64,000 nucleotides of DNA from Patescibacteria group bacterium (GCA_038065095.1 JBBTRR010000006.1:84713-148712), one strand, 5' to 3'. Counted from the first letter of the stretch, positions 21,159 to 37,616 are shown. A program made the numbers and translations. Notes: generated by a model not told the origin, from the sequence alone.

Positions 21159-21809
21159 TTATCTATCCCAATTCCACTCTTTAAACCCTTTTCCTGCCTC
21201 TCCTTTTTCCCACTTAGCCCTTTCAATTATCTGCCCATTTTCTAACCGTACCGATCCTTGTTCTTTTAAACTTTTTCTAAACCAATCTTCTTCATCTTTG
21301 CGCCGATCTTTCTGGCGTTTTAGTTTATCTGCTACCGATAATATTCCTTCGCTTCCCATTTTATCTGTTAAAGATTTTTGCAGTTTATCTAGTAAATAAT
21401 TTAATTCTTTGGCACGAAGTTTTAGTTGTAAACAAATGGGCAAAATGGGATTAAGGGGATAAAACAATATTTTCTCCCATTCCCTTTTCTCCCATTTCCC
21501 CCCTTCCACCCCCTTTGCGGCGTAAACGCCGCGTAGTATATCCGTAAAATCTTCTTCTAGTTCTGCGTTAGACGCAACAGCGTAACCCAAAAATTGATAA
21601 TATTCGCGGGTTGAATTTCTTTTCCAACCCTCGGTTATATTTTGTTTTGTTGAACGAGCTGATCTTTCCATTTGATCTGAAAGGGCTAAAAGGGTTTTTG
21701 AATGGGAGAAAGTTTTTACATAATCTGCTAAAGCCATCTGCAACTCTTCAGCTTTTTTATAAACCAGCAACTCTCTATACCCATATAAACTTTTAGCTTG
21801 TTTGATCAT
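21159..21809 (-). CDS. Four-helix-bundle protein (TIGR02436 / 23S rRNA-IVS protein / Avd-like family) with C-terminal extension
   Basis: YRELLVYKKAEEL...DQMERSARSTKQNITEGWKR.S..E...FL..A..S..ELE pattern characteristic of the family. Confidence 0.6.
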   Translation of the reverse strand: MIKQAKSLYGYRELLVYKKAEELQMALADYVKTFSHSKTLLALSDQMERSARSTKQNITEGWKRNSTREYYQFLGYAVASNAELEEDFTDILRGVYAAKGVEGGKWEKREWEKILFYPLNPILPICLQLKLRAKELNYLLDKLQKSLTDKMGSEGILSVADKLKRQKDRRKDEEDWFRKSLKEQGSVRLENGQIIERAKWEKGEAGKGFKEWNWDR

Positions 21810-22014: not shown

Positions 22015-23496
22015 TTATGGAGTTTCCGCTGGAGGTGTTACCGGTTCCTCGACCACAGCGACAGGTTCTTCTGCAGGCGGTGTTACCACAGGCTCTTCAA
22101 CCAGAGGCAGGATGGATTCCTCGGTTGTTGGAGGAATAATCTCTTCCACTGGGGATGCAACTGCTTCTGCGAGCGGAGCTACTGGTTCAATGGGTGTAAC
22201 AGGATTAATGGGTTCCAAAGGGGTTTCTGAAGGAGGTTGTGATGGGGTCAAAGGAGCAACTTCCTCTGCTCCTTTCTTCCTTGCAATAACCATCCAATCA
22301 AAAGTTCCGCCTTCATCAAAAGCATTTATTTCTTTAACTTCAAAACCAAATCTGGTTTTTTGGCTAACATATAACGGGCCGTTCAAACGGCTGGTTGGTG
22401 TTAAAATAACTTTTATATTTTCGGTTTCGGAAATAAGCGAAACAAAACTTTCATCAAATTTTATTTTAATTCCAGCCGATGCCAATCCAGTTTGAGCATC
22501 GACTGGTAACGTAACTAAAGTGGCCGATCCCGAAGCTATAACTTCATCTCGGCTGGATGTTATGCCAAAAGTTTTAAAATTAACATCGGTTTCGGTTTCG
22601 TCTTTCTTTATTAACTTGGTGGTTTCAGCTAAAGCCGCATTAGCCCAATCGCCTATTGTTGACGCAATCGAAGCAAGCGTGGATTTGGCAACCGTGATTG
22701 CATTATTAATAAAACCCGAAGGCACAGGAGCTTCGCTCCCACTTGGGAGCGAAGCTCCCAAGTTAACGGCCTCTAAATTGGCAACCCTAGTTTTAATATC
22801 TTCTATTTGAACTTGTTGCGCCTTCACACCAGCTAATATAAACGAAGAGAGTTTGTATATATCTACGCCTTTACCATCTATACTTAGAACTTCGGCTGGA
22901 GCTTCTTCTGCTATTAAACCCAATCTCTTGGGATTAGCAGAGTCTTCTATACCATAGTGATAAGTGGCCACATTAGCAGATTTAATTTTTTCCAGAATGT
23001 TTTTTTCTTCTTCGCCTGTTAAATATTGTATATCTATTTTGGAACTACGCGTAGATATATTTACAAAAGCCGTGGCAGCGATATCTCCCACAACCGAAAG
23101 TTTATAGCTTGGAGTAGATGTACCGATACCAACACGGCCAGCCGATGTAACCACAAAAGAAGTTTCTTCGGAATCATTAACCTGCAGTTTCGCGGTGGGC
23201 GTGGTAGTACCGATGCCGACGTTGCCACTCATATTTATATAAGTGTTATGCGCAAAAATATCGTTGCCCACAAAGTTGTGCGTATCTTCCACTTCAATAT
23301 CGTAAACTTGTTCGCGGCCAACGGGTTTAATAGCCACAATTTCGTCCCAAAACACGTCGCTCTCTGTTACATCAACACGACCAGATAAACCACCATTTTT
23401 ATGCAAATCTAAAACACCTTTTTTGGGTACGGCAATAAACTCGCCGACTTTAATCTGCGATATTTTTTTCCATTTAGTTTTTTCTTTGATTGGCAT
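22015..23496 (-). CDS. Intein C-terminal half (Int-C, ~84 aa) fused to C-extein: GIGTTTP-repeat / S74-chaperone-like / Pro-Glu-rich tail protein
   Basis: N-terminus KWKKISQIKVGEFIAVPKKG...DVFWDEIVAIKPVGREQVYDIEVEDTHNFVGNDIFAHN|T matches mini-intein blocks F/G (cf. Ssp DnaB mini-intein DIYWDSIVSI...VFDLTVPGPHNFVANDIIVHNS); extein continues NVGIGTTTPTAKL repeats seen in the giant ORF. Confidence 0.7.
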   Translation of the reverse strand: MPIKEKTKWKKISQIKVGEFIAVPKKGVLDLHKNGGLSGRVDVTESDVFWDEIVAIKPVGREQVYDIEVEDTHNFVGNDIFAHNTYINMSGNVGIGTTTPTAKLQVNDSEETSFVVTSAGRVGIGTSTPSYKLSVVGDIAATAFVNISTRSSKIDIQYLTGEEEKNILEKIKSANVATYHYGIEDSANPKRLGLIAEEAPAEVLSIDGKGVDIYKLSSFILAGVKAQQVQIEDIKTRVANLEAVNLGASLPSGSEAPVPSGFINNAITVAKSTLASIASTIGDWANAALAETTKLIKKDETETDVNFKTFGITSSRDEVIASGSATLVTLPVDAQTGLASAGIKIKFDESFVSLISETENIKVILTPTSRLNGPLYVSQKTRFGFEVKEINAFDEGGTFDWMVIARKKGAEEVAPLTPSQPPSETPLEPINPVTPIEPVAPLAEAVASPVEEIIPPTTEESILPLVEEPVVTPPAEEPVAVVEEPVTPPAETP

Positions 23497-23533
23497 ATTT
23501 TTTATAATTATTTTTTTCTTTTTGCTAGTCTTT

Positions 23534-23577
23534 AAGGTCAGACCTTTTTCTTAACGGGCATATTAAGGTCAGACCTT
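23534..23577. repeat. Paired palindrome aaggtcagacctt-N18-aaggtcagacctt (cassette boundary, copy 1)
   Basis: Two 13-bp near-perfect palindromes flanking tttcttaacgggcatatt; near-identical copy at 26270-26313. Confidence 0.7.
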
Positions 23578-23647
23578 GGAACTTAATATTTTTATTTTTC
23601 GCCCCATTGGGACGCGAATCTCGGCAGAAATATCGGCACTGGGGCGT

Positions 23648-24085
23648 TCAACGTCGGGACTGGGACGGCTCATACCACTTCTGCCACGACTTTTCCAAAC
23701 GAAATATCTTTGTTCTAGCTTCGCTGTAACGCCGAACCAAATCATCAACTAACTCCACATCAATTTTGTCGCCATAAATTCCCTTGGCCTGTTCCAAATA
23801 TACCACCATTTTATTGCACCCCACCAAAATCCGCTCTAGCATACTGATAGAATTTTCGTGATTACCAAAACGAGTGGAATGAGCTGAAGCCAAAGCCATC
23901 GGCAAACCCAAAGCACACTTCACTAATTCTTCCACAAATGGGCATTTAATTTTAGCCAGTCCAGCGCTAATATCTTTAACCACGATCACCGAGGCTTCCA
24001 AAGTTTTTTGATACACTTCCAAATCCCGGAAGCTCCTGACCGGTTTTTTTACAGAATAAGTTTTTTGAGAATTATAGTTTATCAT
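23648..24085 (-). CDS. Four-helix-bundle protein (TIGR02436 / Avd-like family)
   Basis: 145 aa; FRDLEVYQKTLEASV... signature start of the family; higher GC than surroundings. Confidence 0.6.
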   Translation of the reverse strand: MINYNSQKTYSVKKPVRSFRDLEVYQKTLEASVIVVKDISAGLAKIKCPFVEELVKCALGLPMALASAHSTRFGNHENSISMLERILVGCNKMVVYLEQAKGIYGDKIDVELVDDLVRRYSEARTKIFRLEKSWQKWYEPSQSRR

Positions 24086-24099
24086 TTTTTTCGCATTAT

Positions 24100-25518
24100 C
24101 TAAACTATCTTTAATTTATTTTCTCTCGGAATCTCAAACGCCATACCCTTATTTTTTAAATAAACTTTTTTCTTTTTGCGATCCGATATTTTTTTAACCA
24201 CATGCAACGGATAAAATTCAAAATAATCTTTTTCATCAAACCAGCCGCACTTAAATTCATATAATCGCAAACCGGTCAGACGCGACAAGGCCAAAGCATA
24301 CCACTCCAATTGTTCAATTGGCTTTTCTTTGGCGGCGTTGGGTTTGTAATCAAGAATATGAATCTGGCCGTTTCTAATTTGAAGCAAGTCTATGTGGCCA
24401 GTGAGCAATCTTGGCACCCCAGCGCCGACTTTGTCTTCTGCCGGCCTTGTGGCCGTCTCATTGCCGATGTTTTCCGAATCTGTCCCTTGTTGCTCAACGC
24501 CAAGTTCAACCTCGGGAACGGGACGATCCCAAATCTTAAAATTCAACACATTTTCCATATGTTCAATATCTTCTTTTCTAATATACACCGGCACTTCCGA
24601 AGCTACAGTAACCGAATCATTGGCCACCATAAACATCTGCAAGCGGTCGTGCCTAGCTTTATTATCGCTCACGCCCTGCAAAACAAACTCGGCCAAGCGG
24701 TTGGCATAATTTTGTTTTGAATGCACAATCATTTGAGCTTTGCTAAATTTAGTTTTAACTTCCGACATCCGCCCGCCTTCCTGAAAATATTGATGCGGGG
24801 TTTCAGCCGAAACCGCGTCTAAATAATCTTTTAATGGTTCAAAATTTCGGTTTTTAAATTCCTGCAAAGCTAATGCTATTTTGGGCCGATGGTAACGAAA
24901 GCGATACAACTGCCGATGCGCCATGGTTACGGTTTCTATAGTTTTTTCAGGCGAACACATTTTTGTGGCGTAAGGCCTCAATCTGGAATAACGGCACAAC
25001 TCGGCATATTCTTCTACCCAGCCCGATAACGTAGAGGCGCCGGGGTTAACGCCAAATTTTTGGTTTAACGCGCGGCAAGTAGCTTCCAAAGTGTGGCCGA
25101 GATTGTAAATAGTTAAACCCGCCATAATTACATTCACCGGAAACTTTTTTCCTTTTACAAATTGAGCGGTGAACACACGAGAACAAGCGTGACACAAATA
25201 TAATTGAACGGTTTCAAATTTCTTTTTTCTAACCCCGCGTTTTACAAAATCCGTAGATGAACAATAAGGGCAACGCTCGGCGATTCGGGATTCCCCCATC
25301 CCAGTGCCGAGCGCCCCGCTCCCGATATTGCCTTTATGTTGAATTGCAGAAACTTCCGATGTTGCTTCTGAAAAAACTTCGGCATCGGGTCGTGCCAAAA
25401 GGCCTGCCTTTTCAATATCGGCACAGGGGCGTTCAACCTCGGGAGCGGGTCGACTAAATTTATTCATAATTTTTCCTAATAAGTTTTTCATGACAAGTAA
25501 ATTAACAATCATTGACAC
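24100..25518 (-). CDS. Zinc-ribbon + PD-(D/E)XK-like nuclease (candidate free-standing homing endonuclease of the cassette)
   Basis: 472 aa; CPYCSS...CHACS zinc ribbon; C-terminal GHIDLLQIRNGQIHILDYKP...EQLEWYAL consistent with D..(D/E)xK nuclease core; ~50% GC versus ~35% flanks; truncated duplicate of its 5' end (MSRPSPDVERPSADI) at 23571-23673. Confidence 0.5.
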   Translation of the reverse strand: MSMIVNLLVMKNLLGKIMNKFSRPAPEVERPCADIEKAGLLARPDAEVFSEATSEVSAIQHKGNIGSGALGTGMGESRIAERCPYCSSTDFVKRGVRKKKFETVQLYLCHACSRVFTAQFVKGKKFPVNVIMAGLTIYNLGHTLEATCRALNQKFGVNPGASTLSGWVEEYAELCRYSRLRPYATKMCSPEKTIETVTMAHRQLYRFRYHRPKIALALQEFKNRNFEPLKDYLDAVSAETPHQYFQEGGRMSEVKTKFSKAQMIVHSKQNYANRLAEFVLQGVSDNKARHDRLQMFMVANDSVTVASEVPVYIRKEDIEHMENVLNFKIWDRPVPEVELGVEQQGTDSENIGNETATRPAEDKVGAGVPRLLTGHIDLLQIRNGQIHILDYKPNAAKEKPIEQLEWYALALSRLTGLRLYEFKCGWFDEKDYFEFYPLHVVKKISDRKKKKVYLKNKGMAFEIPRENKLKIV

Positions 25519-25564
25519 AACTTACATATTTGACATTACCGTTAAATAGATTATCATTGTATTT

Positions 25565-25819
25565 ATGAAAATGGCTACCAAAAACAACATTGGCGGAGCT
25601 ATCGTTATCAAGCAGAAAGTTAGGTTTGGCAAACCCTGTATTAAGGGAACTAGAATTGCTATTGCCGATATCTTGAACCTTTTGAAAGCCGGTTATGCTA
25701 TTGAGGAAATTCCAGAACAATACCCCAACATAACCACCGAAGATGTGCGCTTGGCTTTGCGCTACGCCGCGAGGACAATGGCCAAAGAAGAAATTCTGGA
25801 AGTTGCTCCCGTGCAGTAG
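25565..25819 (+). CDS. DUF433-family protein (putative antitoxin-like)
   Basis: 84 aa; GKPCIKGTRIAIADILNLLKAGYAIEEIPEQYPNITTEDVRLALRYA matches DUF433 signature. Confidence 0.7.
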   Translation: MKMATKNNIGGAIVIKQKVRFGKPCIKGTRIAIADILNLLKAGYAIEEIPEQYPNITTEDVRLALRYAARTMAKEEILEVAPVQ

Positions 25820-25843
25820 AGTCAAACCGATTCTATTTACTAT

Positions 25844-26203
25844 ATGCTCAAAATTTTTGCCGACGAGTGCATTAACACCGACCTTGTTTTGACTATTAAG
25901 AATAGTGGTTTTTATGTTCTCTCCACCAAAGAAGCTGGGCTTACTGGCGCCAGTGATGAAGAAGTTTTTGATTTTGCTATCGAAAAAGACTTGGTTATTC
26001 TTACTGCCGATCGCGGTTTCGGCGATATCTTTCGTTTCAATATTGGAAATAGCCGTGGTGTCATTGTTGTTCTGGTAGATCAGATGACGCGAGAAGAAAT
26101 TATTAATGTAACTGTGGGGTTTTTTAATTTTATTAAGAAATCTGGAATTGAAGGCAAACTGGCTATTATCGGCAAAAACAAAATCAGAATTGTTGGACGA
26201 TAA
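25844..26203 (+). CDS. DUF5615-family (PIN-like) protein, putative toxin partner of DUF433
   Basis: 119 aa; MLKIFADECI...GASDEEVFDFAIEKDLVILTADRGF typical of DUF5615; adjacent to DUF433 gene. Confidence 0.65.
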   Translation: MLKIFADECINTDLVLTIKNSGFYVLSTKEAGLTGASDEEVFDFAIEKDLVILTADRGFGDIFRFNIGNSRGVIVVLVDQMTREEIINVTVGFFNFIKKSGIEGKLAIIGKNKIRIVGR

Positions 26204-26269
26204 ATATTGGAAATATATTTGGGGTTTACCCACGACCTCCGCCGGAAACGGTGGGGGGTCTATTTTTTC

Positions 26270-26313
26270 AAGGTCAAACCTTTTACTTAACGGGCATATT
26301 AAGGTTTGACCTT
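26270..26313. repeat. Paired palindrome aaggtcaaacctt-N18-aaggtttgacctt (cassette boundary, copy 2)
   Basis: Same architecture and spacer (ttaacgggcatatt) as 23534-23577, direct orientation. Confidence 0.7.
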
Positions 26314-26461
26314 TTTCTATACCTTTTTGGTCTTGTTTCATATCACGACTAAGCGTGATCAAAATCTCACGAGTTTCGGAAATATAAGCACTACCACCGC
26401 CAGCCGTGATACAGATTCCACTGTTTTTTAACTTAATTTTATAAAAAATATTTTTCATATT

Positions 26462-29400
26462 CTAAGAATTATCACTGACAATTTCGGCAAAGTCCCCGCG
26501 CGACAAAAAGACCAGTTTCACAAGGTAAGGATGATTCGCGGTGGTTCTGATTTTTCGCCCCGACTTTGTTACAAGTTCAAAAACTTCCTGCACGCCCATA
26601 TCCATTAAACCATTTACTCGGGCATATTTTACGCAACCAGTTTTTTCATCCAAAGACATCACTTCATCGCCCGCCAAAATATCTTTAATCGCGACTTCAT
26701 CGTATTCAAATTCCCCCTCAAGGTCAGACCTTGGGAATTTTGGTTTTAAGGTCTGACCTTTTTCTTTCGGATGTTTGCGTCTCCTGCGAAGGCGTGTATC
26801 CCCAGTTACGCACTGCGCCACAATGTTCACATTGCCCCCTAAACTGGCGTTACCAAGCGTTATATTGCCCGTAGCATCAACCACCATAGAAGGCGCGGCG
26901 GCGGGGGCGTTCGTTACATTTAAAACATTATTGATATTCTGAATACCCTTAACCAAAATCGGCACCAAGCCAGTAGTGTTTAACGACTTCATTCCATCTG
27001 CATCGGTAGCGATAAGTTTAGGAATTAAAGCTTCTACTTCTTGAGCAATAAAACCAAGACTCTTTGTTGTGCCATCATTTTCATAATTCCAATTGTAAAG
27101 AACTGGTCTTAAGTCCATTACCGTAGCTAGTCCATAATTTATGTCTTCAATATTTTTCTTTAATCTAACATCCGAAGAACAAGCTATTGTTCCGCCAGTG
27201 GCTAAAGTACAACCTGTGGTGTTCACATCAGTGAACTTTGCGATGGTTACTCCGGTACCAGTGCCTTTAACTTCTAGTGGAGCACCGGGATTCGTCGTCC
27301 CGATGCCGACGTTGCCGTTTTGGTCTATCCTCATCGCTGCATTCTGCACACCGTCTTTGTATGTTAAAAATCTAAAGACGCCAGAATCCGCATCAGCCAC
27401 ACTTGGCTGATTTGCTTCAATCTTTGCTATTAAATTCGCCCCGTTATAGAACCTGATGGTACCCAAATCTTCATCGGCGTTATTCCTCGAGCCTTTTAAT
27501 TGTAAAATTGAAGCGCCTAATCCGCTTCTTTCGATGGTGATGCCCTGTGCGTCCGTGGCTCCATAAATATGCAATTGGTTTCCCGGCCCCGTCGTCCCGA
27601 TGCCGACGCTTCCATCTTCTACCCACAGAGTGCTTCCGCTTGCTCCCCTCACCTCCAGCGTGGATGTGGCTATCAGCGAAGATGTGGTAGTCGTGCCCAT
27701 AGCATACAAGCCATCCATAGTTACATTGCCGTCCACTGCCAAAAGATTCCCGGGTGTCGTCGTCCCGATGCCGACGTTGCCGTTTACAACTAACTTCTGG
27801 TCAAAAGTCGCATCCCCCACATCAACATAAAGACCTCCTGAAGTGATATTTAAACCTCCTGTGCCTAAAGAAAGACCGCCATCAAATGTAGAAGTTGCTG
27901 TTCCGCTATTCTTTATTATTGTAGAAACATTAAGTATCGGAGTAGAAAATATGGTTGAAGCATTCAAATTGGGTAGAGTAGATGTAGCAGAACTAGCAGA
28001 AGTTAATTTTCCGCTAAATAATGAATCACCCGTAACATTTAAAGCATTGGCTGATAATCCTCCTGTGGCAAATATACCTCCTCCCGCAAATGTAGATGTA
28101 GCCGTGCCAGAGTTTTTAAGTATTGTAGAAACTTCTAAGGTTGGGGTTGTTAGTATAGTGGAAACATTTAATTGAGGGGCGGTTGATGTGGAAGCTCCCG
28201 TTAGAGTGAGTTTGCCACTGGATAAAATATCTCCTCCTGTAATGGTAAGCCCTGTGGCTGAACTTAGTCCGCCAGTAGTTAGTATGTTAATACCTCCAGT
28301 AAATGTAGAGGTGGCAGATTCTGTTACATCTAACGCTCCAGCGAATGTGTTGTTAGTGGTAGATGTGGCAGTAAGAAAAGAAATTTTTGTTTGACCTTCC
28401 ACGGTTAGTTCACCAATATTGGCATTGCCTTGAACGGATAAGAGACTGCCGGGTGTAGAAGTTCCAAATCCAACTTTTTCTTTAAATACTGCCAGCACAT
28501 TGCCACCAGTGTAAGCCGAGCTTCTGACTTCCAATGTAGAGGTGGCAATGAGAGAAGAGGAGGTGGAGGTGGCTTGGGTGTAGAGAGAATCAAAGTTTCC
28601 AGAACCGTTCACATCCAGGAGATTCCCGGGTGTCGTCGTCCCGATGCCGACGTTGCCGTTTACAACTAACTTCTGGTCAAAAGTCGCATCCCCCACATCA
28701 ACATAAAGACCTCCTGAAGTGATATTTAAACCTCCTGTGCCTAAAGAAAGACCGCCATCAAATGTAGAAGTTGCTGTTCCGCTATTCTTTATTATTGTAG
28801 AAACATTAAGTATCGGAGTAGAAAATATGGTTGAAGCATTCAAATTGGGTAGAGTAGATGTAGCAGAACTAGCAGAAGTTAATTTTCCGCTAAATAATGA
28901 ATCACCCGTAACATTTAAAGCATTGGCTGATAATCCTCCTGTGGCAAATATACCTCCTCCCGCAAATGTAGATGTAGCCGTGCCAGAGTTTTTAAGTATT
29001 GTAGAAACTTCTAAGGTTGGGGTTGTTAGTATAGTGGAAACATTTAATTGAGGGGCGGTTGATGTGGAAGCTCCCGTTAGAGTGAGTTTGCCACTGGATA
29101 AAATATCTCCTCCTGTAATGGTAAGCCCTGTGGCTGAACTTAGTCCGCCAGTAGTTAGTATGTTAATACCTCCAGTAAATGTAGAGGTGGCAGATTCTGT
29201 TACATCTAACGCTCCAGCGAATGTGTTGTTAGTGGTAGATGTGGCAGTAAGAAAAGAAATTTTTGTTTGACCTTCCACGGTTAGTTCACCAATATTGGCA
29301 TTGCCTTGAACGGATAAGAGACTGCCGGGTGTAGAAGTTCCAAATCCAACTTTTTCTTTAAATACTGCCAGCACATTGCCACCAGTGTAAGCCGAGCTTC

Positions 29401-32400
29401 TGACTTCCAATGTAGAGGTGGCAATGAGAGAAGAGGAGGTGGAGGTGGCTTGGGTGTAGAGAGAATCAAAGTTTCCAGAACCGTTCACATCCAGGAGATT
29501 ACCGGGCGTTGTCGTCCCGATGCCGACGTTGCCGTTAGGATCAAAAGTCAGTCTGGCGTTTCCTCCTATAGGGTCTCCTCCTTTAGTAGTGCTTTGATAT
29601 ATAATAAAATCCCCATATTGCTGATAACTCATAGCGAAACCATAATTTCTCACAGCAGCAGTTGTGTCACTGCTTTTCATTCTAAATGTTGGAGAAATAC
29701 CAGTTGATAAACCACTAATAGTTAACCCTTTTGTATTGGTTCCAGTTGCGACTTCAAGAGTATCTGCTGGTGCCGTCGTGCCGATGCCGACGTTGCCGCC
29801 AGAACTTATACGCATAGCTTCAGCAGTGCTGGCTCCGTTTGCTCTAGTAGCAAAAGCCAAATATCCAGCATAATTGTTATCTGTACCGTTTTCTTTAGCT
29901 CCTAATATATAGGCAAAAGGAGTATCTGTTGTTCCGGTATACTTACCTCCAAAAATGATTTTACCACCACTATCAATATGCATTGATCCATCCTCCTGAA
30001 TAGATAATTGTCCAGTAAAAGGATTGTTTGAATTCCCGCTATATGAAGGACCAGTAATTTCTAATACAGTTGCTCTAACTGTAGATGGCGTGGATGTACC
30101 GACCTGTAAAAGCGTCCCCGGGTCCGTCGTCCCGATGCCGAGATTACCGTTAGAATCTATTCTCATTCTTTCAGTCCAGCTGGTCAGCCGATCGTTGGCG
30201 CTGCCAAAGGAGAGACTGCCGTCAGTGGAAGAGGCATACCAGTGTTTTAGATCAGCGGCGGCATCAGTGTCAGACAGCATTAGTTGGGCAGAGCCAGTGG
30301 AAGCAAGTTGCAATAATTTAGCGGGAGTGGTGGTGCCAAGGCCCACATTGCCCGATATTATGACATTGCCGTCAGCCACTGTGGTGGTGTCGTAAGAACT
30401 GCCCACAGCTAACCCGCCCGAGACTGAAAGTTTGGCTCCAGGTGAAATCTCGCCTATGCCGACATTGCCTTCGGTAACTGCAAGGTAGGTGTTGCCATAG
30501 ACGCTTAGGTAGCCAGATGGGTTATACATACCAATGCCAACAGAGCCTCCGTTGGTTACTACAAAGTTGTATGTGCCTACAGAGTTAACTACGCTTAATA
30601 AATCCTTTGTTGAGTTTGAATTGTCGTTAGATATGGTGAGCGTGCTTGATGGAGTTGAACTTCCCATGCCAACCCTGCCATTCCATGTAACCAAATCATT
30701 ACCCGTAGTTCCCCTAACCTCTAACGTGCTTGTTGCAATTAGTGATGATGTTGTAGTTGTACCCATTGCGTAGAAATTATCTACCGATGCATCACCATCT
30801 ACTGCGAGTTTAGTACCTGGGGTGGTTGTGCCAATGCCGAAGTTGCCGAATATCCAAGAATTGTTGGTGCTGGTTGAAGTGAAGTAGTCGGCTGATACGA
30901 AGCCGTCAAATATGCCTGCGCCTTGGACTGCGAGTCTGGCGCCTGGAGTTGTTGTTCCAAGTCCAATCGCTCCGTTAAAGAAAGAAGCCGTGGTTGATGT
31001 GCTTGTTAGGAAAGCAGTTTTGAGTTGCCCTTCTACAGTAAGCTCTCCAATGTTGGCATTGCCGTGGACAGAGAGGAGGCTTCCTGGAGTGGATGTTCCA
31101 AATCCAACTTTATCTTTGAATACTGCAAATACATTTCCACCAGTGTAAGCCGAGCTTCGGACTTCTAAGGTGGAGGTGGCGATGAGAGATGATGTAGTTG
31201 TAGTAGCTTGGATGTATTGATTACCTTTAATCGTGGAATCTCCTTCAACTGCAAATCTAGTGCCGGGAGTGGTGGTGCCAATTCCCATTGATCCCATTAT
31301 CCAACTTGTTAGAGATGATGTGGATGTGAAGTAATTAGCCGAGACGAAGCCATCAAATATGCCTGCGCCTTGGACTGCGAGTTTAGCACCGGGAGTAGTG
31401 GTTCCAAATCCAACACTTCCTGTAAAAGATGAATTAGCTAAAGATGTAAGAGTGAGTTTGCCACTTGATAAAATGTCTCCCCCCGTAATGGTGAGCCCCA
31501 TTGAACTCGCCAAACCAGCAGCTTCAATACCTCCATCAGCTGTTGTTGTGGCGTTGTTTTTAAATTTTAAAGTCCCGGTGAATATTGAATTGCCTTCCAC
31601 CACCAAATTGTTTTGTATGTTGGCGTCGCCGTGGACAGACAGAAGTGTGCCGGGAGTATCTGTGGCTATGCCAACTCTGCCATCCCACACCATAAAATCT
31701 TTGCCTGATTGTCCGCGAACTTCTAGTGTGGATGTGGCGATGAGAGATGAGGTTGTTGTAGTGGCTTGAATATATAAACCTCCTTTGAATGAACCGCTAC
31801 CCTTTGCGTCAAATGCGACTCCAGGTGTGGTTGTGCCAATGCCGAAGTTGCCGAATATCCAGCTGGAGTTTGTGGATGTGCTGGTGAAATAGTCGGCTGA
31901 TACGAATCCTTCTATAATAGAAGCACCTTTTACTGCGAGTTTAGAGCCAGGCGTAGTAGTGCCCAAACCCAAAGCCCCATTGAACCAGTTAGTGTTAGTG
32001 CTGGTTGATGTGAAGTAATCAGCGCTGACAAATCCTTCCGATAATACCCCCCCTTTGATTCCCATTTGTGCCCCCGGGGTTGTGCTTCCAATTCCCATTT
32101 GACCCATTATCCAACTTGTTAGAGATGATGTAGATGTAAAGTAATTAGCACTGACGAAACCGTCAAATATTCCTGAACCTTTAACACCTAGGGCTGATCC
32201 GGGTGTTGATGTGCCCAGACCCAGATTAAGGCCAAACGATGTGGCGCCCGAGATAGTTAAGTCTCCAGTAATGGTGGTGTTGCCTGTTATGGATGTTGTG
32301 CCTGTGATGTTAGAAGCTCCTATTACTGATAGGCCATTTGATAGGATTGATATTCCTCTGCCAAATTTAGCTTCGTATGCTGTAACTTCGAATGGGCCTT

Positions 32401-33712
32401 TGAATGTGCTTGATGCGTTTACTGTCATTTTGTCAGAACCTGAATCACCTAGAGAGATTTCTTTGCCTGCCACAGAGAAATTACCAGATATTCCGAGGTC
32501 ACTCATACTGGCTCCTCCTGTAACACCAAGAGAATTAAGTTGAGTGTTGCCACTTACTGTGAGGCCACCTTCTTTTATTTGTGCACGTTGGGCAGCGATA
32601 AAACCTGTAGCGTCTAAATCGCCTTTTAACGTGAGCCGGCCGATGATAGATGAATTGCCAATAACGTCTAGGCCGTTAGATATTACAGCTTTGCCGTTTA
32701 CAAAAAGATCTTTGGCCAGCGAAACATAATCGGTAAACTGGGCAGTGCCATTTATTAACGCGGTGCCATCTAGCACTAAAGATTTTAAAATTTCCGCGCC
32801 GCCGCCCAATGTTATTTTATTTGAAGTTACTGCACCATTGCCGGTTATCAACTGCAAATCAAAACTGCCGGCAGTTAAACCGTCCAAAAAATCAGCCGAT
32901 AAATTAGGCACAGTTGTATTAGAATCAACTTCAAATGGTGCAACACCTTGTGGTGCAAAACTTCTTAACTGTCCTTGAGTTTCTATATTGCCAGCAATAG
33001 AAATATCACCGCCTTTATTTAAAAGCAAAACTTCGTTAGCGTGTGTACCTGGTGCGTGGCCATCTAAAGTTAAAGCGTTATCAACTAAATTTTTAAAAGC
33101 GCCATAAATAGCATTCGCAAATTTTAAATTAAAACCACCCAAAATAAAACCTAAAACTAAAATACTAACAATGGACATCTCGGCCCATTGCACCGCACCT
33201 CGGCCATAAGATTTAGCTTTAGAAGTTAGAGGTTGGAAAGTAGGGACTGAGGGTTTTAAATTAGGAAAAGCAAAACTTGGAACTAATTTTTCTTCGTTTG
33301 AAATTTGAAAATTTGAACTTTGTAATTTATTTGTAATTTGTGAATTGGAATTTGTAATTTTCTGCTGATATATTTCTTCCAACTCATCCAATTCTTTTTT
33401 AACATCTACAACCAAATTTTCTTCAACCCTTTTCACCTCTTTTGTTTCACCCCTTTCTCCCATTTCTGGCATACTGGCCAATGTAACCAAAGGGGCGAAA
33501 TGGGAAACAACGGGAGAAATATTTTGTTGAGGTAAAATAATTTGCTGATGACTCTGTAAATATTCCACCAAAGCACTTTTTGAAATTGCCCAATTACGCC
33601 CAAACTTTTTTCCAGCGATTCTACTTTTTCTAACAAGCAAACTCAAATACTCCGCGCTATACGGAGTCTCTTTTGCAATTTGGCTTATTAAAATAAAATC
33701 GTTTTTTTTCAT
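26462..33712 (-). CDS. Giant (2416 aa) repetitive cell-envelope/fibre-like protein: HTH-like N-term, TM anchor, GIGTTTPG beta-helix-like repeats, S74 intramolecular-chaperone domain, C-terminal intein N-half (Int-N)
   Basis: N-term FILISQIAKETPYSAEYLSLLVRKSRIAG (HTH-like), TM WAEMSIVSILVLGFILGGF; dozens of GxGTTTPG repeats; CSSDVRLKKNIEDINYGLATVMDLRPVLYNW...LGFIAQEVEALIP = peptidase S74/endosialidase chaperone signature; terminal CVTGDTRL...VAIKDILAGDEVMSLDE...TTANHPYL = intein blocks A/B. Confidence 0.8.
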   Translation of the reverse strand: MKKNDFILISQIAKETPYSAEYLSLLVRKSRIAGKKFGRNWAISKSALVEYLQSHQQIILPQQNISPVVSHFAPLVTLASMPEMGERGETKEVKRVEENLVVDVKKELDELEEIYQQKITNSNSQITNKLQSSNFQISNEEKLVPSFAFPNLKPSVPTFQPLTSKAKSYGRGAVQWAEMSIVSILVLGFILGGFNLKFANAIYGAFKNLVDNALTLDGHAPGTHANEVLLLNKGGDISIAGNIETQGQLRSFAPQGVAPFEVDSNTTVPNLSADFLDGLTAGSFDLQLITGNGAVTSNKITLGGGAEILKSLVLDGTALINGTAQFTDYVSLAKDLFVNGKAVISNGLDVIGNSSIIGRLTLKGDLDATGFIAAQRAQIKEGGLTVSGNTQLNSLGVTGGASMSDLGISGNFSVAGKEISLGDSGSDKMTVNASSTFKGPFEVTAYEAKFGRGISILSNGLSVIGASNITGTTSITGNTTITGDLTISGATSFGLNLGLGTSTPGSALGVKGSGIFDGFVSANYFTSTSSLTSWIMGQMGIGSTTPGAQMGIKGGVLSEGFVSADYFTSTSTNTNWFNGALGLGTTTPGSKLAVKGASIIEGFVSADYFTSTSTNSSWIFGNFGIGTTTPGVAFDAKGSGSFKGGLYIQATTTTSSLIATSTLEVRGQSGKDFMVWDGRVGIATDTPGTLLSVHGDANIQNNLVVEGNSIFTGTLKFKNNATTTADGGIEAAGLASSMGLTITGGDILSSGKLTLTSLANSSFTGSVGFGTTTPGAKLAVQGAGIFDGFVSANYFTSTSSLTSWIMGSMGIGTTTPGTRFAVEGDSTIKGNQYIQATTTTSSLIATSTLEVRSSAYTGGNVFAVFKDKVGFGTSTPGSLLSVHGNANIGELTVEGQLKTAFLTSTSTTASFFNGAIGLGTTTPGARLAVQGAGIFDGFVSADYFTSTSTNNSWIFGNFGIGTTTPGTKLAVDGDASVDNFYAMGTTTTSSLIATSTLEVRGTTGNDLVTWNGRVGMGSSTPSSTLTISNDNSNSTKDLLSVVNSVGTYNFVVTNGGSVGIGMYNPSGYLSVYGNTYLAVTEGNVGIGEISPGAKLSVSGGLAVGSSYDTTTVADGNVIISGNVGLGTTTPAKLLQLASTGSAQLMLSDTDAAADLKHWYASSTDGSLSFGSANDRLTSWTERMRIDSNGNLGIGTTDPGTLLQVGTSTPSTVRATVLEITGPSYSGNSNNPFTGQLSIQEDGSMHIDSGGKIIFGGKYTGTTDTPFAYILGAKENGTDNNYAGYLAFATRANGASTAEAMRISSGGNVGIGTTAPADTLEVATGTNTKGLTISGLSTGISPTFRMKSSDTTAAVRNYGFAMSYQQYGDFIIYQSTTKGGDPIGGNARLTFDPNGNVGIGTTTPGNLLDVNGSGNFDSLYTQATSTSSSLIATSTLEVRSSAYTGGNVLAVFKEKVGFGTSTPGSLLSVQGNANIGELTVEGQTKISFLTATSTTNNTFAGALDVTESATSTFTGGINILTTGGLSSATGLTITGGDILSSGKLTLTGASTSTAPQLNVSTILTTPTLEVSTILKNSGTATSTFAGGGIFATGGLSANALNVTGDSLFSGKLTSASSATSTLPNLNASTIFSTPILNVSTIIKNSGTATSTFDGGLSLGTGGLNITSGGLYVDVGDATFDQKLVVNGNVGIGTTTPGNLLDVNGSGNFDSLYTQATSTSSSLIATSTLEVRSSAYTGGNVLAVFKEKVGFGTSTPGSLLSVQGNANIGELTVEGQTKISFLTATSTTNNTFAGALDVTESATSTFTGGINILTTGGLSSATGLTITGGDILSSGKLTLTGASTSTAPQLNVSTILTTPTLEVSTILKNSGTATSTFAGGGIFATGGLSANALNVTGDSLFSGKLTSASSATSTLPNLNASTIFSTPILNVSTIIKNSGTATSTFDGGLSLGTGGLNITSGGLYVDVGDATFDQKLVVNGNVGIGTTTPGNLLAVDGNVTMDGLYAMGTTTTSSLIATSTLEVRGASGSTLWVEDGSVGIGTTGPGNQLHIYGATDAQGITIERSGLGASILQLKGSRNNADEDLGTIRFYNGANLIAKIEANQPSVADADSGVFRFLTYKDGVQNAAMRIDQNGNVGIGTTNPGAPLEVKGTGTGVTIAKFTDVNTTGCTLATGGTIACSSDVRLKKNIEDINYGLATVMDLRPVLYNWNYENDGTTKSLGFIAQEVEALIPKLIATDADGMKSLNTTGLVPILVKGIQNINNVLNVTNAPAAAPSMVVDATGNITLGNASLGGNVNIVAQCVTGDTRLRRRRKHPKEKGQTLKPKFPRSDLEGEFEYDEVAIKDILAGDEVMSLDEKTGCVKYARVNGLMDMGVQEVFELVTKSGRKIRTTANHPYLVKLVFLSRGDFAEIVSDNS
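26720..26760. repeat. Paired palindrome aaggtcagacctt-N15-aaggtctgacctt lying in-frame inside the Int-N coding sequence
   Basis: Encodes EKGQTLKPKFPRSDLEGEF loop inserted between intein block A (CVTGDTRL) and VAIKDI. Confidence 0.65.
27748..29499. repeat. Exact tandem duplication, 2 x 876 bp, inside the giant CDS
   Basis: Sequences 27748-28623 and 28624-29499 are identical (ORF-track duplicates 27843..28175 = 28719..29051 etc.); third diverged copy follows. Confidence 0.9.
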
Positions 33713-33717
33713 GAAAA

Positions 33718-33752
33718 AACCCTGCTTCCGCTTTCGCAGAAACAGGGTGCTT
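33718..33752 (-). promoter_or_regulatory. Stable hairpin + T-run abutting the giant gene start codon (attenuator/terminator-like)
   Basis: Minus strand: ccctgtttctgcgaaagcggaagcaggg tttttt c ATG; no SD between hairpin and ATG. Confidence 0.4.
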
Positions 33753-33907
33753 AGTTAAAGGCATATCCGATACCTCTATCGGATATATCCAGTATATCAT
33801 ATATATCGTATATCAATAGGCTAAATGGGGATAAGTTACACCTCAAAACCTTAAGCTTTAAATCCTCTTTCAAGCCCATTTGTTACCCTTTTTATTTCAA
33901 ATTCCAA

Positions 33908-33945
33908 AAGGTCAGACCTTGGGGCTGCTCTTAAGGTCAGACCTT
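33908..33945. repeat. Paired palindrome aaggtcagacctt-N12-aaggtcagacctt in giant-gene/MerR divergent promoter region
   Basis: Two perfect copies of the 13-bp palindrome. Confidence 0.7.
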
Positions 33946-34087
33946 AAGATTTAAAATTTTACATTTTAATTTTTTAATTTTTATTTTAATCCCCTGTGGT
34001 GGATAACCTCTATTGTTGCTTCTAAGTTTAAATACTAAACTATAGATACATTGATATAAAAAGTTTAGTAAACATTAATATACATAT

Positions 34088-34312
34088 ATGTCTTTTGGTA
34101 GAAAATATCTAAGCATTAAACAAGCCGCCGCGGTTATTGGCGTAACCCCGCTAACTTTGCGCAACTGGGACAGGGACGGCAAACTTAGCCCATATCGCAA
34201 TCCTATAAACAATTACCGCTATTATCGTGTAGATCAAATAGAAGCATTCTTGCGAGCTATGGAAGGCTCTAGAGAAAAAGGAAATAGAAAAATAAGGTTT
34301 ATGGACATCTAA
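34088..34312 (+). CDS. MerR/excisionase-type HTH DNA-binding protein (74 aa), divergent from giant gene
   Basis: LSIKQAAAVIGVTPLTLRNWDRDGKLSPYR...YRYY matches MerR-type HTH (HTH_17) pattern. Confidence 0.6.
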   Translation: MSFGRKYLSIKQAAAVIGVTPLTLRNWDRDGKLSPYRNPINNYRYYRVDQIEAFLRAMEGSREKGNRKIRFMDI

Positions 34313-34401: not shown

Positions 34402-34749
34402 CTAACTAACTTTATTTAATATCGCAGAAAATATATTTCTTAACTCTATACTCTCTTGAAATAAATTTTGAATTGCTTCTGAATAATCTTTGTTTGATTC
34501 CTCTAGTAACTCTAACCAGTATGATGTTTCTTTAGATTCTTTTCTAGCAATTTTTATTTTATATGCTAAATCTTTTTTACTTAGCTTTTCATTAGCTTCC
34601 CTATAGTTAGCTCCTACTGAACCTGCAGAACGAACACATTGTCTAACGAGTTCATTGTTTATAGAATTTTTTGGTAATTTTTGACAAAGCTTAATTACTT
34701 CTCTTGTGAATTCTAAAGTTCTTTGTTCTAAATCGCGAAATTTTTTCAT
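34402..34749 (-). CDS. Four-helix-bundle protein (TIGR02436 / Avd-like family)
   Basis: MKKFRDLEQRTLEFTREVIKLCQKLP...VRQCVRSAGSVGANYREA...KDLAYKIKIARKESKETSYWLELL; ORF-track start at 34836 overlaps tRNA so internal Met at 34749 used. Confidence 0.6.
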   Translation of the reverse strand: MKKFRDLEQRTLEFTREVIKLCQKLPKNSINNELVRQCVRSAGSVGANYREANEKLSKKDLAYKIKIARKESKETSYWLELLEESNKDYSEAIQNLFQESIELRNIFSAILNKVS

Positions 34750-34800
34750 AACCCTTTTTGTGTTTTGTTTGTAATTTGTTTTTTGTGCTTTGAATATTTG

Positions 34801-34984
34801 TGGACGGTACAGGATTTGAACCTGTGACCTTTGCAACTTGCCCCGTTAGATATTTTTGTGCGCGATGCAGGATTTGAACCTGCGACCTTTGCAATGTGAA
34901 TGCACTGCTCTACCACTGAGCTAATCGCGCATGATATCTAACGGGGTGAAAATGCAGCGTTCTACCATTGAACTAATCGCCCTC
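34801..34984 (-). other. Interrupted tRNA-Val-like gene: 5' half (34948-34984) and 3' half (34801-34840) separated by a CCCCGTTAGA-TIR element (34841-34947, copy C) that carries the intact tRNA-Val
   Basis: 5' half GGGCGATTAGTTCAATGGTAGAACGCTGCATTTTCAC and 3' half CAAGTTGCAAAGGTCACAGGTTCAAATCCTGTACCGTCCA are ~85% identical to the corresponding halves of the nested tRNA-Val; element termini ccccgttagatat / atatctaacgggg. Confidence 0.55.
34859..34930 (-). tRNA. tRNA-Val (anticodon CAC), nested inside a palindromic element
   Basis: GCGCGATTAGCTCAGTGGTAGAGCAGTGCATTCACATTGCAAAGGTCGCAGGTTCAAATCCTGCATCGCGCA; clean cloverleaf, anticodon loop tTCACAt. Confidence 0.75.
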
Positions 34985-35759: not shown

Positions 35760-37616
35760 ATGCAGGGTTCTAATTTCTACCCCGAAGAACTAACTATCCT
35801 AGATAAAACAAATCTTGGCTCAAGTTATGCCGAGACTTTTGTTTTTGTGCCTTCTAATAAAGACGAATCTCAACTAGGCAGTCTTTTTATAGTAGCTGAA
35901 GCTTCTTCTAATAAACCAAAAAAAGAAAATGCCGAACTTATAAGCGAGATGACTACCGTAATAAAAAATGAGTATTATCAAAATACTTTAGTTACACCAA
36001 TGTCAGCCTTAAAATTTTCTTTAAAAAGAGTTAATAGTCTTTTAACTAGTAAAAAAAATTGGGTAAACACAGCTTCCGCTTTAAAACTCAAAATACTTAT
36101 AGTCTCGCTTAAAGAAAATAAATTGCATATTGCCCGACTAGGTGATGCTACTGCTTTTGTTTTAAGAAATGGCAACCTTCAATCTATAGTTGCTGGTTCT
36201 AATAATCAAAATTCCAGTAATTTTTCTTTTGAAAATATTATAAGCGGAGAACTTCTACCAAACGATCACGTATTATTAGCCACCAACCAAATTTATAAAA
36301 TTGATGAAAAAGAAATAGCTAAAAAGTTACAAGAAAAGATAATAGCAAGTTATCTTTCTAAAAATAACGGTGGTATAAAAAGTTTGGCACTGATAAGCCT
36401 GCATCCCGTTAAAGACGGCAAACCGTCTTTAACGCAAACCCCTTCTTTGCCCTCACTCATATCCATAAATAATACAGAAGCCAACATACCCGATAACAAT
36501 GCACCAGAAAGAAATGTATCTAAAATATTTAAACTTGGTATTGTAATAACTATTTTAATTGTAGCAATTTCTTCTATAACCATCGTATCTATTAAAATAA
36601 AAAACGAAACATCACAAAACAAAAAGGAAGCCGAGCAATTATTACAAGAAGTATCCGATATAAAGACCAAAATAAACGACCTACTGGCTACCAATAACGA
36701 AACCGAAGCTAACGAACTTTTAGTTTCTGCTCAAGCCAAACTAAACCGCTTAGCCCAGCTCGATTATTTTAAAACAACCCGCTCTACTTTGGCTGTGGAC
36801 ATAAATAAAATTTATAAAGAATTAAGCAAAGAAGAAAACATAAACAAAATAAATAAAGTTTTTGATTTAGAAAATAATTCTGTAAGTTTTGAACCGACCA
36901 AAATTGCTTTGGGTAAAAATAAAATATTTGTACTAAGTGGTGAAAACTTTTATAAATTTGATTTTAATAAAGCCGAAGGTGTTTTTGATTCTATAGAAAA
37001 AGGCAGCCAGCTAGTTGCATCCTTATTAAAACCAGAAGATCCTAATTCACAACTTCTTATAACCCAAGATAAGATAATGGAAGAAAAAGGAGATTCCGAA
37101 AATAAAACTTATTGGATACGACCCGAAAATTTTCCCGCCATAAAAGATGTAGCGATTTATAGTAATTCTTTCTATCTCTTGAGTGAAGATGGCTTAATTT
37201 ATAAACTGCCATTTACTGTATCATCAACCACGGATATTATCTTTAATGAAACTGAGTTATGGACTAAAAAAAACCTAACCCCTAGTGGTGAGTCACTAAT
37301 CACTAATCTCGCCGTTGAAGGTTCAGTTTTTGGATTATCCAATAAAAATACTTTAGTAGAACTTATAAATGGCGATATTAAAAATAAAAAGGTTTTCTTG
37401 GAAAACATAAGCCAAATTTTTACTTCGCCTTCGCATAAAAATATATATCTTTTAAGCCAAGACGATGGCTTAATAATAGTTTTAGATAAAGACTTAAACA
37501 TTAAAAAAAGACTTAACCACAACGAACTTGTCAGGGCTAAGTCTTTTATTGTTAATTCTCAAGAAAGAATTATATATTTTCTAAAAGGTAAAACAGTCTA
37601 CAGCTTTGAAATCTAG
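35760..37616 (+). CDS. Hypothetical bitopic membrane protein (618 aa)
   Basis: Central TM IVITILIVAISSITIVSI; no confident family assignment. Confidence 0.45.
   Translation: MQGSNFYPEELTILDKTNLGSSYAETFVFVPSNKDESQLGSLFIVAEASSNKPKKENAELISEMTTVIKNEYYQNTLVTPMSALKFSLKRVNSLLTSKKNWVNTASALKLKILIVSLKENKLHIARLGDATAFVLRNGNLQSIVAGSNNQNSSNFSFENIISGELLPNDHVLLATNQIYKIDEKEIAKKLQEKIIASYLSKNNGGIKSLALISLHPVKDGKPSLTQTPSLPSLISINNTEANIPDNNAPERNVSKIFKLGIVITILIVAISSITIVSIKIKNETSQNKKEAEQLLQEVSDIKTKINDLLATNNETEANELLVSAQAKLNRLAQLDYFKTTRSTLAVDINKIYKELSKEENINKINKVFDLENNSVSFEPTKIALGKNKIFVLSGENFYKFDFNKAEGVFDSIEKGSQLVASLLKPEDPNSQLLITQDKIMEEKGDSENKTYWIRPENFPAIKDVAIYSNSFYLLSEDGLIYKLPFTVSSTTDIIFNETELWTKKNLTPSGESLITNLAVEGSVFGLSNKNTLVELINGDIKNKKVFLENISQIFTSPSHKNIYLLSQDDGLIIVLDKDLNIKKRLNHNELVRAKSFIVNSQERIIYFLKGKTVYSFEI

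Follow-up and report, generated by a model that had tools for sequence, protein, structure and literature searches.

The arrangements closest to the one described here are the fractured genes: split inteins in phage-type DNA-metabolism genes, with a free-standing GIY-YIG, HNH or Vsr-like endonuclease between the halves and hairpins upstream of the endonuclease (Dassa, London, Stoddard, Schueler-Furman & Pietrokovski 2009, PMC2677866). The locus considered here lies in 64 kb of chromosomal DNA (hereafter, the window) from a bacterium of the candidate phyla radiation (CPR; Patescibacteria) in Hainich groundwater, and it had been read in an earlier note, made from the sequence alone, as a giant fibre gene fractured within a mini-intein. 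This reading of the gene is borne out: as in the genes described in 2009, two co-oriented open reading frames (ORFs) carry complementary intein halves, the break lies inside the intein and a nuclease gene stands between the halves. The locus belongs to a large family of such fractured fibre genes among CPR bacteria, one that has so far gone undescribed. It is nevertheless important to stress how this family departs from the genes described in 2009. The host is a chromosomal giant surface fibre and not a phage-type DNA-metabolism enzyme; the predicted nuclease combines an IS1-type Zn ribbon with a PD-(D/E)XK core and is not of the GIY-YIG, HNH or Vsr-like (EDxHD) type; a constant partner gene, probably encoding a four-helix bundle, accompanies it; the break falls between intein blocks B and N4 and not at the canonical endonuclease site; the module also occurs beside intein-less genes of the host family; and there is extra cargo (toxin-antitoxin, Bro-N, IVP).

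The two pieces of the fibre gene and the two genes that separate them are laid out as follows, IntN and IntC denoting the N- and C-terminal halves of the intein. All ORFs named in the earlier note were recovered at the coordinates it gave.

33712→26462, minus strand: giant fibre ORF of 2416 aa (ORF listing)
26813..33712, minus strand: N-extein, fibre piece 1 (aa 1-2300), with an N-terminus resembling a helix-turn-helix (HTH), then GNVGIGTT repeats and, towards the end, a chaperone-like S74 module
27014..27175, minus strand: S74 intramolecular-chaperone-like module 1 (giant aa 2180-2233; PF13884, 53.5 bits against a cut-off of 22, E 3e-14)
26462..26812, minus strand: IntN, running from Cys1 (CVTGDT) by way of a variable, R-rich loop to block B (TTANHPYLVK) and closing with 17 non-conserved residues before the stop
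24100..25518, minus strand: nuclease of 472 aa (Pfam and NCBIfam)
23648..24085, minus strand: helical protein of 145 aa, the partner 3' of the nuclease
23496→22015, minus strand: 493-aa ORF (ORF listing)
23245..23496, minus strand: IntC, 84 aa, in which a leader of 8 aa is followed by block N4 (WKKISQIKVGEFIAVP), the loop of the canonical site and blocks F and G, the latter ending in AHN
22015..23244, minus strand: C-extein, with Thr+1 (TYINMSGNVGIGTTTP), a second S74-like module at 22897-23049, a C-terminal domain and a Pro/Glu/Thr-rich tail

In the explanation proposed here, one giant CPR cell-surface fibre protein would be encoded as two co-oriented genes, the first piece (2416 aa) ending with approximately the first 99 residues of a class-1 mini-intein, from Cys1 through block B, and the second (493 aa) starting with the other 84 intein residues (N4, F and G to His-Asn) before Thr+1 and the distal fibre. 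After translation, the intein halves would dock, rebuild the HINT fold and trans-splice, joining …NVNIVAQ to TYINMSGNVGIGTT… (predicted junction …GGNVNIVAQ-TYINMSGNVGIGTTTPTAK) and freeing the intein halves. The nuclease and its four-helix-bundle partner would form a selfish DNA element of the homing type that has specialised in the 3' region of fibre genes with GNVGIGT repeats and colonised the intein in a subset of lineages; a DUF433/DUF5615 gene pair and four hairpins with 13-bp stems would be lineage-specific additions. For this explanation as a whole, a split-intein fractured fibre gene with a homing-type nuclease module, the probability is put at roughly 0.7.

The assignment of the two ORFs to one intein is founded on matches that complement each other. 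The Pfam Intein_splicing profile is covered from position 9 to 71 by aa 2339-2398 of the giant protein and from 72 to 155 by aa 3-84 of the 493-aa ORF (50.8 bits, above the cut-off of 35.8), the two matches abutting at positions 71/72, and IntC also exceeds the cut-off of the TIGR01443 intein_Cterm family (34.6 bits against 15.6). When concatenated, IntN and IntC are colinear with the structure of the Ssp DnaB mini-intein (1mi8, E 1.8e-20), and no further intein halves were found in the window. The earlier note had proposed both the intein halves, at the end of one ORF and the start of the other, and their colinearity with DnaB, and on these points it is upheld. The catalytic residues are conserved throughout: Cys1 of block A lies in CVTGDT at giant aa 2301 and C[VIL]xGDT is kept in homologues; the TxxH of block B is present as TTANHPYL, with RTTxNHP[YF]L across 20 loci; blocks F and G end in VYDIEVEDTHNFVGNDIFAHN followed by T, that is, His-Asn and then the +1 Thr, AHNT being invariant in 20 loci; and every IntC of these 20 loci keeps W.KVS.L..G..IAVP … VYDIEVEGTHNF..N.IFAHN and then Thr. 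The R-rich loop of IntN, in turn, varies across the whole family.

The position of the break distinguishes this intein from those characterised so far. In the alignment with 1mi8 it falls between HPYLVK and EKTKWKKISQIKVGEFIAVP (HPYLVK/EKTKWKK), right after block B and before block N4, the DnaB counterparts of the flanking segments being HRFLTID and GWKRLDELSLKEHIALP. The claim that the split coincides with the place of homing endonucleases does not hold for canonical inteins, because the DnaB loop from which the endonuclease domain was removed, PKKGVLDLHKNGGLSGRVDVTE, lies inside IntC here, and the break is approximately 25 residues upstream of the canonical endonuclease site, which follows N4. 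The gap between B and N4 is nonetheless an insertion point used within this intein family, as an NYN domain is inserted in frame at profile positions 76/77, in the same gap, in the contiguous relatives P0059, P0071 and P0110. Among contiguous inteins of the family, this NYN domain (PF01936) between blocks B and N4 is seen in P0059, P0071, P0105, P0110 and P0117 and at L027:917-2356, and a free-standing 166-aa NYN gene adjoins the nuclease in L019. No paper was found, among open-access full texts, that links inteins with NYN domains or describes inteins in CPR fibre proteins, and no characterised natural split between blocks B and N4 was found in the literature searched.

Compared with other natural split inteins, the present one shares class-1 chemistry (Cys1, HN) and two separately translated halves with the cyanobacterial DnaE split inteins, gp41-1, NrdJ-1 and IMPDH-1. 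In contrast, these are split after N4 and have an IntC of about 35-40 aa, whereas here IntC comprises 84 aa including N4 and the +1 residue is Thr; moreover, the dnaE halves lie far apart in the genome. Natural splits at non-canonical positions are also represented by AceL-TerL and GOS-TerL, which are divided approximately 25 residues from the N-terminus (PMC11766414); here, the split comes after block B, in the middle of the connection between the N-lobe and the C-lobe.

That the two exteins belong to one protein can be recognised from genes which are unbroken in other CPR genomes. A junction query of 320 aa, in which the final 160 residues of the N-extein were joined to the initial 160 of the C-extein, aligns across the junction to single intein-less ORFs in L053 (41% identity over 284 columns) and L068 (34%), in which the first S74 module, a linker, a GN[IV]G[IV]GT repeat and the second S74 module follow one another. 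These ORFs are the uninterrupted alleles that the earlier note had suggested looking for in relatives, and its second S74-like module in the 493-aa ORF is likewise confirmed, with an S74 module present in both exteins. The C-terminal 379 aa of fibre piece 1 resemble numerous phage tail-fibre PHROGs at their C-terminal ends, and for both S74 modules the matches lie at the very C-terminus of many phage tail-fibre families; the N-extein alone thus resembles a complete fibre with its terminal chaperone. Two further observations concern the giant gene. Its first 55 residues (33550-33712) form, by eye, an HTH-like segment resembling the excisionase/HTH_17 type of the divergent 74-aa gene described below. 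It also contains a near-perfect tandem duplication with a period of 876 nt (approximately 917-928 nt at 99.7% identity, window 27734-29537), which repeats a 292-aa fibre block; in the assemblies L002 and L003, from the same population, this region is joined differently and the giant ORF is broken, a discrepancy that reflects either misassembly or real strain variation.

The arrangement is not confined to this genome. The identical 493-aa protein with the same neighbours occurs in 15 contigs from several Hainich groundwater samples, in which the arrangement was assembled identically. A virtual-precursor query, composed of the N-flank, IntN, IntC and the C-flank, returned 126 proteins, nearly all of which span one half of the query only: many are S74-bearing Patescibacteria 'tail fiber domain' proteins that end a few residues past TTANHPYL, and many others begin approximately 10-25 residues ahead of W.KVS.L..G..IAVP. 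On the long contigs L007 (Zambryskibacteria), L009 and L010, IntN, homologues of the nuclease (48-63% identity) and of the 145-aa protein (40-53%), and IntC follow in the order and on the strand seen in the window, and in L007 the synteny extends downstream to an IVP-type gene and then a TPR protein. Finally, a scan with the nuclease alignment over one genome per GTDB species gave 301 relatives and returned 80 loci, whose intein halves were scored with purpose-built hidden Markov models; 79 of the 80 come from metagenome-assembled genomes (MAGs) that carry the label of a CPR/Patescibacteria lineage or of an unclassified bacterium. Both intein halves flank the module in 19 of these loci, and five more have one half at a contig end. 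The IntN ORF stops 4-19 residues after HPYL in 12 loci, while in four others (L030, which is P0238, L039, L047 and L051) IntN reads in frame into the nuclease. The earlier note had envisaged the local invasion of an intein by one composite cassette; this is not what the relatives show, and because no fewer than 19 other species share the split position and the module, the arrangement characterises the family and is not a recent local event. Both intein halves are also under purifying selection, with a Nei-Gojobori median ratio of non-synonymous to synonymous divergence (dN/dS) of 0.22 for IntN (13 pairs) and 0.19 for IntC (30 pairs), values obtained at a high dS, near saturation.

Some of these fibres are divided further. 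In L091:742-2807, the end of a nuclease gene and a helical-protein gene are followed by an ORF consisting of IntC, a 97-aa extein and IntN, and then by an ORF that starts with IntC, this second break having no intervening gene; similar middle pieces of the IntC-extein-IntN type are found in P0003-P0006 (also P0008). Because such middle pieces occur, some fibres are encoded in at least three pieces by inteins of one family. The nuclease fusions of L030, L039, L047 and L051 and the nuclease loss at the second split of L091 correspond to the evolutionary intermediates predicted for the fractured genes of Dassa et al. C-exteins vary among the loci.

The nuclease gene between the halves encodes an IS1/IS1595-type Zn ribbon (aa 83-118, 30.7 bits against a cut-off of 28), a conserved middle region and a PDDEXK_1 domain (aa 326-414; PF12705, 26.3 bits against a cut-off of 22) with the PD-(D/E)XK core GHIDL…LDYKPN…EQL…Y. 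In 20 homologues, the Zn-ribbon cysteines and LLTGHID…LDYKPN…EQL.WYA are invariant, and the family comprises 1739 protein clusters at E < 1e-5 from many CPR classes, the best 120 being 56-77% identical. Of the original description as a Vsr-like Zn-ribbon/PD-(D/E)XK nuclease, the domains stand, both above their cut-offs, and the Vsr likeness does not, since no Vsr-type family was matched at E <= 0.01 in Pfam or NCBIfam; the core is rather of the Cas4/RecB type, joined to an IS1-type Zn ribbon. A restriction-enzyme-like fold tied to self-splicing elements is also known from I-Ssp6803I and the Vsr-like EDxHD family (I-Bth0305I, PMC3239194), from which the predicted nuclease differs in showing no Vsr profile similarity, in its Cas4/RecB-type PDDEXK_1 core with an IS1/IS1595 Zn ribbon and in its constant four-helix-bundle neighbour. 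A profile search of PDB sequences gave the Zn ribbon of Rpb9 as the sole resemblance. The conserved core begins near aa 73 (ATG at 25302) and the N-terminal leader is variable; as some homologues share an MKxxLxKI… N-terminus upstream of M73, the leader may be translated, and M73 is a candidate start. An unrelated second PDDEXK_1 protein (263 aa, E 3.6e-12, window 47410-48201, minus strand) adjoins ftsW.

The 145-aa protein is encoded 3' of the nuclease and on the same strand in approximately 75 of the 80 loci. The copy in the window has no Pfam or NCBIfam hit of its own even at E <= 1; among its homologues, however, 18 of 25 weakly match PF05635 (23S_rRNA_IVP; best E 1.3e-5), so that it can be regarded as a divergent protein of the four-helix-bundle/IVP type, and it shares an F.DL.VYQK start with the 23S rRNA IVP/TIGR02436 proteins, which belong to the same fold class as the Avd protein of diversity-generating retroelements. 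The Avd/S23-like label given to it earlier is accordingly carried by the homologues and not by a profile hit of the window copy, which also sets that copy apart from canonical IVP proteins. Such canonical 23S-rRNA-IVP/TIGR02436 genes stand on both sides of the fibre locus (21159-21809 and 34402-34836, minus strand), the latter 22 nt from a tRNA-Val (34858-34930), and recur beside the IntC gene in related loci (L007:7130-7717, L092:4263-4628).

The other features of the locus are the following.

34088..34312, plus strand: MerR/HTH_17 DNA-binding protein of 74 aa, divergent from the giant gene (PF00376, 40.9 bits)
33908..33945: hairpin copy 1, intergenic, between the giant gene and the divergent MerR-type gene
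26720..26760: hairpin copy 2, a 13-bp perfect stem with a 15-nt loop, in frame within the R-rich variable loop of IntN and coding for KEKGQTLKPKFPRSDLE
26270..26313: hairpin copy 3, a 13-bp stem with an 18-nt loop, between the IntN stop and the end of the toxin-antitoxin pair (fold z -6.1)
25844..26203, plus strand: DUF5615/PIN-like putative toxin of 119 aa (PF18480)
25565..25819, plus strand: DUF433 putative antitoxin of 84 aa (PF04255)
25414-25455: 42-nt GC-rich repeat, copy A, in the 5' region of the nuclease gene
25294..25449: long inverted repeat in the 5' region of the nuclease gene (arms 25449-25413 and 25330-25294), covering the internal ATG at 25302 and including copy A
25294-25455, 24504-24526 and 23629-23670: elements of the GN[IV]G[TS]G[TA] type
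23629..23670: 42-nt GC-rich repeat, copy B, overlapping the 3' end of the 145-aa gene, 86% identical to copy A
23534..23577: hairpin copy 4, 38-81 nt upstream of the IntC start codon

The DUF433 and DUF5615 genes form an adjacent pair (E 1.3e-21 and 4.3e-20, with a PIN_10 match of 26.3 bits against a cut-off of 26.2), antisense to the fibre gene as the earlier note had stated. Their inclusion in one composite cassette did not survive comparison: the pair is absent from L007, L009, L010, L091 and L092, the split loci examined gene by gene, and its place is taken in other loci by Bro-N, canonical IVP, HicAB-like, PemK-like, MNT/HEPN-like, PIN or free-standing NYN genes. The pair therefore looks like a locus-specific extra, and the conserved module consists of the nuclease and the helical protein. 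A sigma-70-like promoter of the DUF433 gene lies at 25530-25557 (scores 11/12); a promoter scan of the locus was otherwise at chance (10 counted against 10.1 expected), the promoter and terminator of the toxin-antitoxin pair alone being convincing. A 318-aa ORF antisense to the pair (26458-25502) is considered spurious, since it matched no family and is missing from the source annotations. The interval between the intein halves was said to be higher in GC; at 0.39-0.46 it does exceed the genome background, and it does not exceed the fibre gene itself. For the divergent 74-aa protein, the MerR HTH match fits HTH_17/excisionase-type domains equally well, given its length of only 74 aa.

The sequence AAGGTCWGACCTT is found only as four pairs, all in the fibre locus (16 strand-hits against 0.46 expected), each pair folding as a hairpin whose stem measures 13 bp. 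Copies 3 and 4, which agree at 89% of their 47 nt, bracket the toxin-antitoxin pair, the nuclease and the helical-protein gene, which agrees with the near-identical paired palindromes noted earlier at the ends of the interval. A hairpin is favoured over two operator sites, because two changes in copy 3 are compensatory: they keep the stem and break each individual palindrome. No paired AAGGTCWGACCTT hairpins were found in L007, L009 or L010, nor anything similar, and for this reason they are no longer regarded as conserved module ends. As in the fractured genes of 2009, hairpins at the RNA level lie near the start of the nuclease and upstream of the C-terminal part. The long inverted repeat has a predicted RNA fold of -66 kcal/mol (z -2.6). 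The duplicate of the nuclease 5' region that had been reported corresponds to the 42-nt copies A and B. These belong to a class of short GC-rich elements which translate as GN[IV]G[TS]G[TA] or, from the opposite strand, as RPxA[DE][IV], resemble the code for the fibre GNVGIGT repeat and occur in the nuclease leader, in the nuclease variable loop and 3' of the partner gene in about one third of the loci. A part played in this system by the four-helix-bundle protein, by the MerR-type gene or by the hairpins, whether as cassette ends or as operators of the MerR-type protein, would be conjectural.

Several observations weigh against the proposed explanation. The split site is unlike that of every characterised natural split intein, and the N-terminal half scores below the curated cut-offs both in Pfam (Intein_splicing, 24.6 bits against 35.8) and in NCBIfam (TIGR01445 intein_Nterm, 21.8 against 24.5). 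An S74 autoproteolytic chaperone-like module lies just upstream of IntN, which makes the gain from ligating a further segment less evident. Splicing and DNA cleavage are both predicted from sequence. For the nuclease, an AlphaFold2 model built from a 20-sequence alignment was poor (mean pLDDT 52) and Foldseek returned nothing at E < 0.4 against the PDB; several of its weak matches are PD-(D/E)XK enzymes, a result that is not usable. Some of the frameshifts seen in several module copies may be long-read assembly errors, and the dN/dS values suffer from the near saturation already mentioned. Finally, in 58 of the 80 loci the module adjoins a fibre gene and no intein is present, a placement that fits a host function or the targeting of fibre genes as well as it fits intein homing; because the module adjoins fibre genes even where inteins are lacking, an intein-homing endonuclease is one reading of it only. 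A selfish nuclease is nonetheless consistent with the invariant PD-(D/E)XK motif, the 1739 clusters, the presence of two copies in one MAG, the frameshifted copies and the variable cargo; the activity and target of the nuclease and the mobility of the module are inferred. The two copies in question are nuclease and helical-protein modules of a single Yanofskybacteria MAG (MGKI01; L011 and L013), each following a PemK-like small gene and a fibre gene.

The placement of the module also speaks for the alternative that survives best, namely that the nuclease and four-helix-bundle pair is a dedicated accessory of GNVGIGT-repeat fibre genes, which might cut repeat DNA for recombination or cassette exchange or act in regulation, and that its position in an intein in some lineages is incidental to a fixed place at the distal end of the fibre locus. 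Among the 48 loci with at least 2 kb of upstream sequence, a GNVGIGT-repeat ORF precedes the module on the same strand in 43 and on the opposite strand in none, and in the 17 intein-less loci inspected ORF by ORF the module typically comes after a complete fibre gene with a Pro/Thr/Glu-rich tail. The conservation and near-constant adjacency of the two genes, the fibre-like GN[IV]G[TS]G[TA] elements within and behind them and the absence of nuclease relatives from 2.9 million viral contigs (IMG/VR) point the same way. On the other hand, the frameshifts, the presence of multiple copies in a genome and the changing cargo at the flanks look selfish; neither cassettes nor silent fibre copies are evident in the window, no target site was identified and the GN[IV]GTG motif occurs in just about one third of the loci. 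This account is therefore regarded as possible, though unlikely. Less likely again, and best treated as speculation, is an extension in which a fibre-dedicated DNA cutter of GNVGIGT-coding repeats drives the exchange of distal segments, while split inteins, through three-piece genes and differing C-exteins, add exchange at the protein level, together making a hitherto unknown system that diversifies the host-contact fibres of episymbiotic CPR bacteria; if this were true, alternative distal modules could be ligated onto one giant shaft.

It might also be supposed that the locus is a decaying pseudogene, in which an insertion destroyed a mini-intein and left a truncated giant protein with a dead IntN, the 493-aa ORF being unexpressed or an independent small fibre and no trans-splicing taking place. 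The low IntN scores would suit such a history, as would the hairpin element within the IntN coding region, the want of a clear Shine-Dalgarno sequence before the IntC ATG and an N-extein that already ends, like a finished phage fibre, in a complete S74 terminal module. However, about 20 species retain this split, their ORFs intact and every catalytic residue (Cys1, TxxH, block F, HN and Thr+1) in place, dN/dS is close to 0.2 in both halves, the R-rich loop that bears the hairpin is a family-wide variable region and intein-less homologues hold both S74 modules in one ORF; decay is accordingly very improbable. The weakest of the alternatives takes the Hint halves for a bacterial intein-like (BIL) or pretoxin-HINT autoprocessing device that cleaves or releases the distal fibre segment instead of ligating it, and it is most improbable: a weak PT-HINT match in Pfam (E 0.0075), the differing C-exteins and a host that is a large, variable, repeat-rich extracellular protein, variable surface proteins being the typical context of BIL and PT-HINT domains, are outweighed by the full set of splicing motifs with penultimate His, terminal Asn and the invariant +1 Thr nucleophile, by DnaB mini-inteins as the best structural-sequence relatives and by the colinearity of the spliced product with unbroken homologues.

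Other origins were tried and rejected. A phage or prophage is not indicated, as the nuclease has no relative in IMG/VR, the fibre shares just the S74 terminal module with phage fibres and the surroundings are chromosomal, with mraZ, rsmH, ftsI and murE (dcw cluster) on one flank of the locus and rpoB, rpoC, ftsW, dnaB and cysS elsewhere in the window. As for a defence system, PADLOC gives just a 44-residue Cas4-like motif in the nuclease and an HTH match in the MerR-type protein, and no reverse-transcriptase family that would indicate a diversity-generating retroelement was matched among the ORFs scanned between 21 and 36 kb. Two further plus-strand ORFs, at 50219-54397 (1392 aa) and 35760-37616 (618 aa), have no Pfam match at E <= 0.001.

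Under the split-intein explanation, the fractured genes would be extended from a handful of phage-type enzymes of ocean metagenomes to the chromosomes of CPR bacteria and to a structural surface protein, by way of a natural split point between blocks B and N4 for which no earlier description was found in the literature searched. Two nuclease types would be newly tied to inteins, the in-frame NYN domain and the Zn-ribbon/PD-(D/E)XK protein with its helical partner. For protein engineering, the family offers dozens of diverged natural split inteins of approximately 100 + 84 residues with Thr at +1, which may be orthogonal to existing ones. For the CPR bacteria themselves, what emerges is a near-obligate, co-oriented link between a nuclease module and the distal end of giant fibre genes. 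These giant fibres are likely the host-attachment organelles of CPR episymbionts, and the link points to a mobile or recombinational process at the part of the cell that contacts the host, and makes that process testable.

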